This document shows positions 1 to 52,437 of a DNA stretch of 64,000 nucleotides, one piece after another. The first letter of the stretch is position 1. The number at the start of each line of letters is the position of its first letter. The notes under the pieces were generated by a model, which worked only from the letters and a program-made list of their open reading frames with translations, did no database searches and was not told the DNA's origin. The translations under genes and the position numbers were made by a program. The stretch is from Eledone cirrhosa (Eukaryota), in NCBI GenBank assembly GCA_964016885.1, contig OZ024760.1, positions 19,592,001-19,656,000 of the forward strand. Reading direction: 5' to 3'.

Positions 1-1791
1 AACCGATGCTAGCAGGGAAACTTCTGCTAGTCCTGTCAACTTATTATATATATATATATATATATATATATATATGTGTGTGTGTGCGTGTGTTCCAAAG
101 AGAATGTTTTGGTAAAAACAGGAGAAAGCTCTCGACATTCGCAGTTTTTAGTTACGATGGAGATTTTTATAAAAATAATTTTTATAAAAATAACAAAATA
201 AGATGCTGAGGTTACATAAATCATTTAATAATTATAATTATTTCCATGGTTCTCCATGCAATCGTGAAGTCCTTCATGCATTTGTTGTTGTTATGAGAAC
301 GGTATCCTCAGATGAAATCTGATTTAGTGATATGCTGCCGGCAGGAAAAAACACACGTCCTTTTGCTCATGTGCCCAGCAGATATACGAGTTCCTGAAAA
401 GGGTGTCCCAGCCGTCGTGTTTGCTGTAGTAAAGTGCTATTAACGTGTCAAGTAGTGAAATCAGGATTCACGCATCCCCCGTGGAGTTGAGGTTGTAAAT
501 TAGCAGAGAGGTAACCTCTCAAGTATGCTGATCTGTATCAAATTATTAGTACAGATTAAAGTTTAAGCAAAGAATTACTGCTTTCACCCTATACAGGATC
601 TTCTGAAATAGAAGACTAATTTTAAATATTTGCTCTACAGGTTTATATGTACTTATATATATATATATATATATACACAATCCTTATCAAGCTTTCTTTG
701 AATTTTGGTCTTTGTATATATTAATACTATATATATATATGTAGCAGTGTAGTTAATACAAAGCATTGTGAGATATGTAGTAAAAGGCCAATAAATTCTT
801 TTAAAAGCTATCTACTGATTGTAAATCCAAGTAGAAGGAGCAACATGGAATAAAGTGTCTTGCTCAAGGACATAATGCATCGCCAGTCTGGGAATCAAAC
901 TCACAACCTCACGATTGTGAATCCAGTTCTCTAACCACTCAGCCATGCACTTTATATATGTCTATATATATATATATATGAGGTCTATAAAATATGTAAT
1001 AGTAATATATTTGGGTTTGATTCTATTGATTAGTTTCTTACTACACAGAATTACTATTCTGTTTATTTCATATGTAATTATTTTAAAACTAATGCTTTAA
1101 AATTAATAATTTGGGTTTCAATTTTTTTTTAATTGTTTATGGTGAACATTTGATAACCTAGCTCTTGTTATAACAGTAGTAAAATAGTTAAATTTTTTAA
1201 ATATATTAATATTAACATGTGATTAATTAATTAATAATAATAATTATTATATGATCCAAATGTTTATTGATATTATTAAAAGAACTACTACAACCATTTT
1301 ATATTACTAATAAGACTGACCATAGTTATATTCAGTGTTTGTGTGTGTGTGTATGTATGTATGTATATATATATATATATATACATACATACCGCATTGT
1401 TGAATTCATCTAACTATAATGGTTTTAACAAGGCTGACAACTATAAAACTGTGCTGACCTACCAAGTGTTATCTCCCTTAGTTGGCTGACACCAGTAATT
1501 ATGTCCCTTCTAAATATTGTGATCAATAACTATAGCTATAAACAAACCAGTTTGATAAATAATACTTCTACCAGTTGTATCCTTTAATTCTCCTCTTTGA
1601 AATAAGTGTAATCTATATATATATATATATATATATATATATATATATATATATATATATGTAAAGTTATATTTAAAATTGTTGGGTTACAACTAGTAAA
1701 TATTTATAACTGATATAAAAGCACTCGACAAATATTTGGAGTATATTTACAATATTAAATAAATGGAAAACTATATTTATAAAACCATATT

Positions 1792-52437: not shown

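Follow-up and report, generated by a model that had tools for sequence, protein, structure and literature searches.

The hammerhead motifs scattered through the 64-kb stretch of DNA that we analyzed, hereafter the window, are very probably the 3′ ends, or pseudo-LTRs, of Penelope-like retrotransposons that were left behind as short stubs. For three families, which we call A, B, and C, this reading follows from a link to open reading frames (ORFs) at other loci, and we infer the same origin for the remaining five. Judging from the available portions of two papers, the pattern in the window has already been described, in 2014 and in 2021 (PMC4209133, PMC8557442). The unexpected part lies outside the window, where some inverted pairs of family A carry dense A-to-G changes on one strand only.

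RESULTS

Hammerhead motifs in the window

An earlier note on this DNA had listed 12 motif stretches and counted at least ten hammerheads of type I, most with a palindromic stem III, in several unrelated families. All 12 stretches are present where they were placed, and 11 of them fall in genome-wide repeat families. These amount to eight insertions of eight families (two inverted pairs, one direct pair, and five singles), so that the type I assignment and the diversity of families stand, while the number of independent insertions falls short of ten and one site loses its support. That site, 9639, has a changed U4, almost no stem II, and a single candidate in the whole genome. Because it combines these features, we set it aside as a likely chance match. 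The CUGANGA/GAAA/UH core, said to be common to all sites, is exact in seven of the 12 (1792, 1905, 8682, 13961, 37658, 40765, and 42253). Four others are mutated, with one change each at 8515 (G12), 42379 (C3), and 47629 (A9) and two at 51244 (U4 and A14). The second family C hammerhead (8682-8732), which begins 167 nt after the first, combines its intact core with a weak stem II. A first look at the genome returned 109, 1058, 5761, 371, 2410, 1002, 616, and 1623 candidates for the eight families; 40 were scored per family, and these figures are not copy numbers.

A looser type I descriptor that demanded an exact core found six matches in the window, compared to a mean of 0.07 (maximum of 1) in 60 local dinucleotide shuffles, an outcome that agrees with the earlier expectation for a shuffled control. 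Four of the six are sites already listed and two are new (223-318 and 51026-51113); a stricter descriptor, which we judged too strict, returned one match. The Rfam hammerhead models, proposed as a further check, gave nothing of the kind, with no hammerhead family among 126 window matches at E ≤ 5. When single strands were folded, two of the 12 sites (42253 and 42379, both in family B) clearly beat shuffled sequence (z of about -2.3 and -2.5), and the other ten folded alone no better than shuffles. The new match at 223-318, on the minus strand, has an exact core, weak stems, and one relative in a spaced sample of the genome, and is possibly a chance match. The insertions are set out in Table 1, together with the hypermutated pairs found elsewhere.

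Table 1. Probable Penelope-like ends in the window and hypermutated family A copies at other loci
Feature	Position	Strand	Remarks
Family A tail (optional 3′ extension, this arm only)	1661..1741	-	Abuts (TA)n 1614-1660
Family A left arm	1742..1865	-	Hammerhead 1792-1857, core intact
Family A right arm, inverted copy	1897..2020	+	96% complementary to left arm; hammerhead 1905-1970, core intact; enters (TA)n 2013-2065
Family C mini insertion	8438..8739	+	Inverted stub, hammerhead 8515-8565 (G12 changed), tail and 5′ leader, hammerhead 8682-8732, (TA)n 8740-8781
Decayed repeat end	13945..14076	+	Hammerhead-like 13961-14046, core intact, stem I poor; before (TA)n 14077-14112
Repeat end, minimal hammerhead 37658-37697	37625..37725	-	Most sampled relatives U4-changed
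Repeat end, long-stem-II hammerhead 40765-40853	40750..40880	+	Core intact
Family B left arm	42221..42345	-	Hammerhead 42253-42313 intact, folds as three-way junction
Family B right arm	42347..42471	+	97% complementary to left arm; hammerhead 42379-42439, C3 changed
Family B tail (this arm only)	42472..42533	+	Before (TA)n
Repeat end, hammerhead 47629-47679	47590..47690	-	A9 changed in window copy
Repeat end, hammerhead 51026-51113	51005..51135	-	Core intact; not on earlier list; another repeat family
Repeat end, relic minimal hammerhead 51244-51280	51215..51315	+	GAAA kept in 0/13 sampled copies
Hypermutated family A pairs	L023:1502-1859, L026:1234-1608, L020:728-1604, L236:6417-6625
Amplified edited lineage	Loci L028, L029, L033, L034, L135, L160, L161

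Several other repeats were encountered in the window. A family C fragment at 42104-42165, truncated within its hammerhead, adjoins the TA run containing the family B pair. One very abundant family, with 34 matches in 590 kb of sampled genome, is represented at 15151-15352 and 15384-15585 (also at 14544-14615, 46818-46921, and 53970-54098). Its copies at 15151-15585 have inverted arms and a one-sided tail between (TA)n runs, the same build as the A and B pairs, and what they keep of a hammerhead looks like the 3′ half only. In addition, there is a strongly strand-skewed tandem array in which a 40-bp unit is present 64 times (57670-60252), a 15-bp near-palindromic array (27642-27996), and two decayed hairpins with arms of 100 to 120 bp (34841-35046 and 57144-57387), the first of which has polarized transitions of 11:2, under the threshold that we used.

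Links to Penelope ORFs

The 64-kb window holds no remnant of a Penelope ORF. At other loci, families A, B, and C adjoin ORFs that carry reverse transcriptase (RT) and GIY-YIG endonuclease (EN). For family A, pieces of RT and GIY-YIG at locus L237 are followed 1.3 to 1.4 kb later, on the same strand, by hammerhead, tail, and (TA)n; at L236 the end of the endonuclease comes before an arm that matches the window copy at 97% identity; and L032 has a similar arrangement with nested insertions. Neptune-like ORFs at L005 and L032 and Hydra-like ORFs at L034 and L160 were considered as parents of family A and rejected as nested or captured neighbors. For family B, locus L314 has an RT and EN ORF upstream on the same strand, and L312 shares its ORF-end sequence at 93%. 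Both of these loci, which make up the family B link, contain nested insertions, and three other extended loci have no such ORF. For family C, 27 loci were read by eye: in five of them a short leader connects the tail to the start of an ORF (four with tblastn), in 21 the tail is joined directly to another hammerhead with no ORF, and in one it simply ends; the query was the ORF-less form, so these shares are biased. No consistent ORF link emerged for the families of 13961, 37658, 40765, 47629, and 51244, each represented by 10 to 16 loci of about 3 kb.

The ORFs linked to family A contain the motifs DKT, CxCX5C, CxxC, and CxH, and those linked to family C contain RWR, DKT, CxCX5C, and CxxC. These motifs match published features of the Hydra clade of Penelope-like elements, which suggests that the A and C ORFs belong there. 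Pfam assigned no family to either of two reference Penelope ORFs; a homolog search returned relatives at 32 to 48% identity, with one named match, an Octopus sinensis protein, at 41% over 23% of the query. Two young, high-copy ORFs were noticed along the way, one Neptune-like (L162:2188-5688, 1167 codons open) and one Hydra-like (L160:3562-6045, 828 codons open), each with at least 150 genomic matches at 95 to 100% identity. A possible hammerhead upstream of the Hydra-like ORF at L034 (about 400-560, plus strand) was seen by eye; its stem II of more than 100 nt exceeds the length limit of our descriptor.

The ends of the insertions are organized in a regular way. Among 28 divergent family A pairs, some of them from one amplified lineage, the tail is present on exactly one arm in 25 and on neither arm in the rest; among ten divergent family B pairs, it is on exactly one arm in nine and on neither in the other. 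Never do both arms carry it. The window pairs fit this one-tail rule, with the tail on the left in A and on the right in B. In the family of 51244, there was no inverted pair among the 40 matches scored.

Since A, B, and C are joined to RT and GIY-YIG ORFs elsewhere, their window copies are, on the strength of sequence comparison, 5′-truncated ends of ORF-bearing Penelope-like elements and not a class independent of such ORFs. The earlier note had proposed a retroelement origin tied to Penelope-like elements, which these junctions uphold, and a population of non-autonomous elements explained by no ORF, which for these three families they do not: only C shows a recurrent ORF-less form.

It seems improbable that the motifs are mainly independent, non-autonomous retrozymes that were excised between two hammerheads, circularized, and copied by a borrowed reverse transcriptase. 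Family C invites that reading, with two closely spaced hammerheads on the same strand in the window and with the ORF-less junction that dominates its biased locus sample; the first copy of this pair, the only direct pair in the window, is core-mutated, and no longer array was seen in the 27 loci. Retrozyme-type elements are already known, as far as the available parts of two sources describe them (PMC7229834; preprint 10.64898/2026.07.22.740005), and at L257:6633-7760 three same-strand hammerheads with 528-nt spacing form a retrozyme-like tandem array, although its family is absent from the window sites. Yet singles and inverted pairs make up most of the insertions. Their 5′ ends vary and run into longer elements, their 3′ ends are common and lie at (TA)n, and the elements end downstream of the cleavage site instead of at it. 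Copies of family C also vary in their junction, and in the five loci described above the tail they share continues into an ORF. Family C probably also moves as a mini form that lacks an ORF, which is the nearest thing here to the non-autonomous element of the earlier note; because the junction varies between copies, that form could have arisen repeatedly and independently.

Genomic density and the host gene

The 3.0-Gb genome was sampled with 59 evenly placed 10-kb stretches (590 kb). The descriptor found 42 matches in them, or 4.6 per 64 kb, compared to zero to two in each of ten shuffles. With six matches in the window against this background, the window is typical of the genome in hammerhead density. 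Scaled up from the 590-kb sample, there would be roughly 200,000 motifs with intact cores genome-wide. A TA run occurs within 200 nt downstream of 36 of the 42 sampled motifs, compared to 18% of random positions, in keeping with the targeting of (TA)n that had been proposed.

The window also contains much of a gene with multiple VWA domains on the plus strand (3209-52437), marked by 13 tblastn matches within 3209-52272. Three more matches in the 10 kb upstream indicate that the gene extends beyond the window, and Pfam recognizes VWA and EGF domains. A Thr/Arg/Pro-rich exon of the gene lies at 38872-39195. All of the motif sites are positioned between VWA-domain exons, and homology thus supports the intronic location given for them earlier. 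This placement, along with the fact that eight of the 12 listed motifs share the strand of the gene, might suggest that the host has retained the hammerheads for processing or regulation of the VWA pre-mRNA. We regard that as very unlikely, given that hammerhead density equals the genomic background and that every one of the motifs belongs, as an ordinary member, to a repeat family. Of the intact copies, the one that folds best (42253) is antisense to the gene; its sense twin (42379) has lost C3, and three more sense copies have changed cores.

Conservation of the core and covariation of the stems

We aligned 44 distinct family A arms found by BLAST, leaving out the hypermutated ones. Mean identity was 97.5% in the core, 82% in stem II, and 95.9% in the 3′ flank. 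Because the core is barely above the flank, the telling feature is position N7, which is free to vary (T in 17 arms, G in 11, A in 11, and C in five). The stem covariation anticipated among copies was seen in this family. In 40 of the 44 rows, nine pairs had two-sided changes, compared to 5.0 in shuffles, with 1 of 500 shuffles reaching nine, although one spurious TA-rich row may explain up to four of the nine pairs and the relatedness of the rows inflates the test. Four pairs in stem II show two-sided changes in three to eight sequences.

The other families differ in how well the core has lasted. In samples biased toward the window's copies, both halves of the core are canonical in 45/66 copies of C, 14/19 of B, 21/25 of the 40765 family, 9/14 of 47629, 11/18 of 13961, 8/11 of 51026, 3/26 of 37658, and 0/13 of 51244. 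U4 has become G in 10 of the 26 sampled copies of the 37658 family. These tallies suggest that the 37658 and 51244 families may have spread with an altered or dead ribozyme.

That the whole set represents chance matches in AT-rich, repeat-rich DNA, as the silent Rfam search, the weak folding of ten sites, and the unique, imperfect 9639 might hint, is so improbable in light of the shuffled controls in the window and the spaced stretches, and of the free N7 and stem II covariation in family A, that we consider it refuted for every site except 9639 and possibly 223-318.

A-to-G hypermutation of family A pairs

A>G or T>C changes dominate in 23 of 88 family A arms. The same dominance was found in none of 49 B arms, 94 C arms, and 18, 22, 24, 14, and 12 arms of other families, and in one of 66 arms of one further family, a contrast that is partly due to sampling since the family A search reached more diverged copies. 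An arm-by-arm tally found no hypermutation in the window's own A and B copies, and the spaced sample, with 131 eligible inverted repeats, yielded no convincing case, the one flagged being a microsatellite. In the affected family A inverted pairs, transitions are polarized to the extent of 51:0, 0:33, 1:34, and 0:35. Where two arms are involved (51:0 at L023 and 0:33 at L026), both read A-to-G on the strand that ends in the tail.

The context of these changes is informative. A 5′ G is avoided (0/33 changes after G versus 128/386; P = 5e-6, two pooled arms being related), and there is no preference for a 3′ G. Hypermutation restricted to TpA was considered as a cause and rejected; the changes follow A, C, and T equally and affect one strand only. 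Unpaired tails were mostly spared (0 to 1 of 27 positions changed, compared to 11 to 18 of about 44 in the arms), while a tail that has a partner, at L236, was affected (16/33). In eight of nine tail-bearing edited arms the GAAA is altered. Taken together, the one-strand pattern is likely the product of ADAR editing that was fixed by reverse transcription.

A simple hairpin model is weakened by two loci, because L020 and L236 are changed in only one arm and the changes at L020 reach the unpaired spacer (17/27 differences). Such cases could arise if the parental duplex was longer, if antisense RNA was involved, or if the cDNA was edited while in a hybrid. An assembly artefact is unlikely; of four runs, all from one study, two have contigs that match the edited arm along 81 and 112 nt, with two and one differences, respectively.

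A single edited pair recurs on at least six contigs, following the 3′ end of a young Hydra-like family other than A; its changes are shared and nested among the copies. The L026 pair also follows that family, and its set of changes is a different one that overlaps with the first. We rejected the idea that the L160 family spread with a dead hammerhead only, as many of its copies seem to stop short of the captured pair and we noticed by eye another hammerhead-like motif upstream of the ORF.

On balance, we lean toward an account in which hairpins of head-to-head Penelope ends were hyper-edited by ADAR and written back into the germline by the Penelope reverse transcriptase. Editing would then act as a heritable DNA mutagen that is able to kill the hammerhead, and one edited pair would have traveled as a 3′ extension of a second active family, also Hydra-like, reaching several chromosomes by amplification and acquiring further edits along the way. 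A search of titles and listings, which covered few subscription papers, found no report of ADAR edits fixed in genomic copies of retrotransposons. The A-to-G hypermutation of inverted repeats that reportedly occurs in avian retroviral DNA offers a precedent.

DISCUSSION

A sequence of steps may be proposed for how the stubs were made. The GIY-YIG endonuclease of an element would cut a (TA)n run, and its reverse transcriptase would begin copying at one of two positions within the element RNA, a little downstream of the hammerhead; the position used would determine whether the end has a tail of 60 to 80 nt. Synthesis would usually halt after 100 to 300 nt, leaving a short stub, and a second copy would often land head-to-head. 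Nearly every stub would keep a hammerhead because the hammerhead is near the start of reverse transcription. The stubs would then decay as passengers. In family C, a mini form without an ORF is likely to spread as well, using the enzyme of its parent. If the hammerheads act at all, they probably do so in the parental RNA, as dimers or with the assistance of protein, rather than on the host gene. When an inverted pair is transcribed in the sense direction, its arms would be expected to pair together and block the ribozyme fold.

Our study adds one genome, with its roughly estimated complement of intact-core motifs, to those that are packed with Penelope hammerheads. Many of the motifs appear to come from Hydra-clade-like elements, which were previously known mostly from cnidarians. 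Thousands of natural insertions provide material for testing models of two start sites and of inversion, and the families that apparently spread with altered cores (37658 and 51244) are relevant to the question of whether cleavage is required. If edits made by ADAR were indeed fixed by reverse transcription, the hypermutated pairs would constitute a fossil record of germline editing and reveal a route by which RNA editing leads to heritable change.

Comparison with known systems

The comparisons below draw on the available portions of the cited papers. Cervera and de la Peña (2014; PMC4209133) described massive numbers of dispersed minimal type I hammerheads in Penelope pseudo-LTRs, mostly single and derived from truncated elements, with some opposite-strand pairs 100 to 700 bp apart. 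Our motifs share the long helix II, the palindromic helix III, and the unpaired base at the start of stem II. They differ in that many families here keep a stem III of 2 to 4 bp and that stem II reaches about 60 nt. We noticed no cephalopod data in the available portion of that paper.

The closest relatives are likely in the Hydra clade of C-terminal EN+ Penelope-like elements, which carry hammerheads and target (TA)n (Craig et al. 2021; PMC8557442). The likeness extends to DKT, an RWK-like motif, the CxCX5C linker, CxxC/CxH, and the C-terminal GIY-YIG of the ORFs, and to the inverted, 5′-truncated copies with a one-sided tail. In the text available, that clade has few families outside cnidarians and its elements are generally under 3 kb, although the supplements may list cephalopod members. 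Here, Hydra-like ORF pieces occur in seven of the 59 spaced stretches, 3′ regions measure about 1.3 kb, and the tails are longer (60 to 80 nt versus 30 to 40 nt). A literature search that combined Penelope-like hammerheads with octopus found this paper only, and the one octopus mention in its available text concerns Naiads.

Biochemical parallels come from the Poseidon element of Anolis (Frangieh et al. 2024; PMC11167929). Its purified protein cuts AT-rich DNA on both strands, two internal start sites of reverse transcription define an optional tail, and cleavage by the hammerhead is not needed for insertion in vitro. The optional tail and the AT-rich targets are shared with our families, but Poseidon belongs to a different clade and its ORF starts inside the hammerhead, whereas in family C about 130 nt separate the hammerhead from the ORF start.

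Animal non-LTR retrozymes are short, ORF-less units with type I hammerheads and a proposed origin from Penelope pseudo-LTRs (PMC7229834; 10.64898/2026.07.22.740005). The mini form of family C resembles them. Retrozymes, however, form tandem arrays with a hammerhead in every unit and give rise to circular RNAs, whereas the window insertions are single, inverted, or one unit and a bit.

Finally, Porath et al. (2017; PMC5625713) documented ADAR hyper-editing of double-stranded RNA derived from repeats, with A-to-G clusters in inverted repeats. In invertebrates a 5′ G was depleted and no 3′ G was preferred, octopus was extreme, and Penelope RNA of a lizard was heavily edited. The A-to-G pattern in family A matches this invertebrate ADAR motif, with the difference that their changes were seen in RNA reads and ours are carried by genomic copies.
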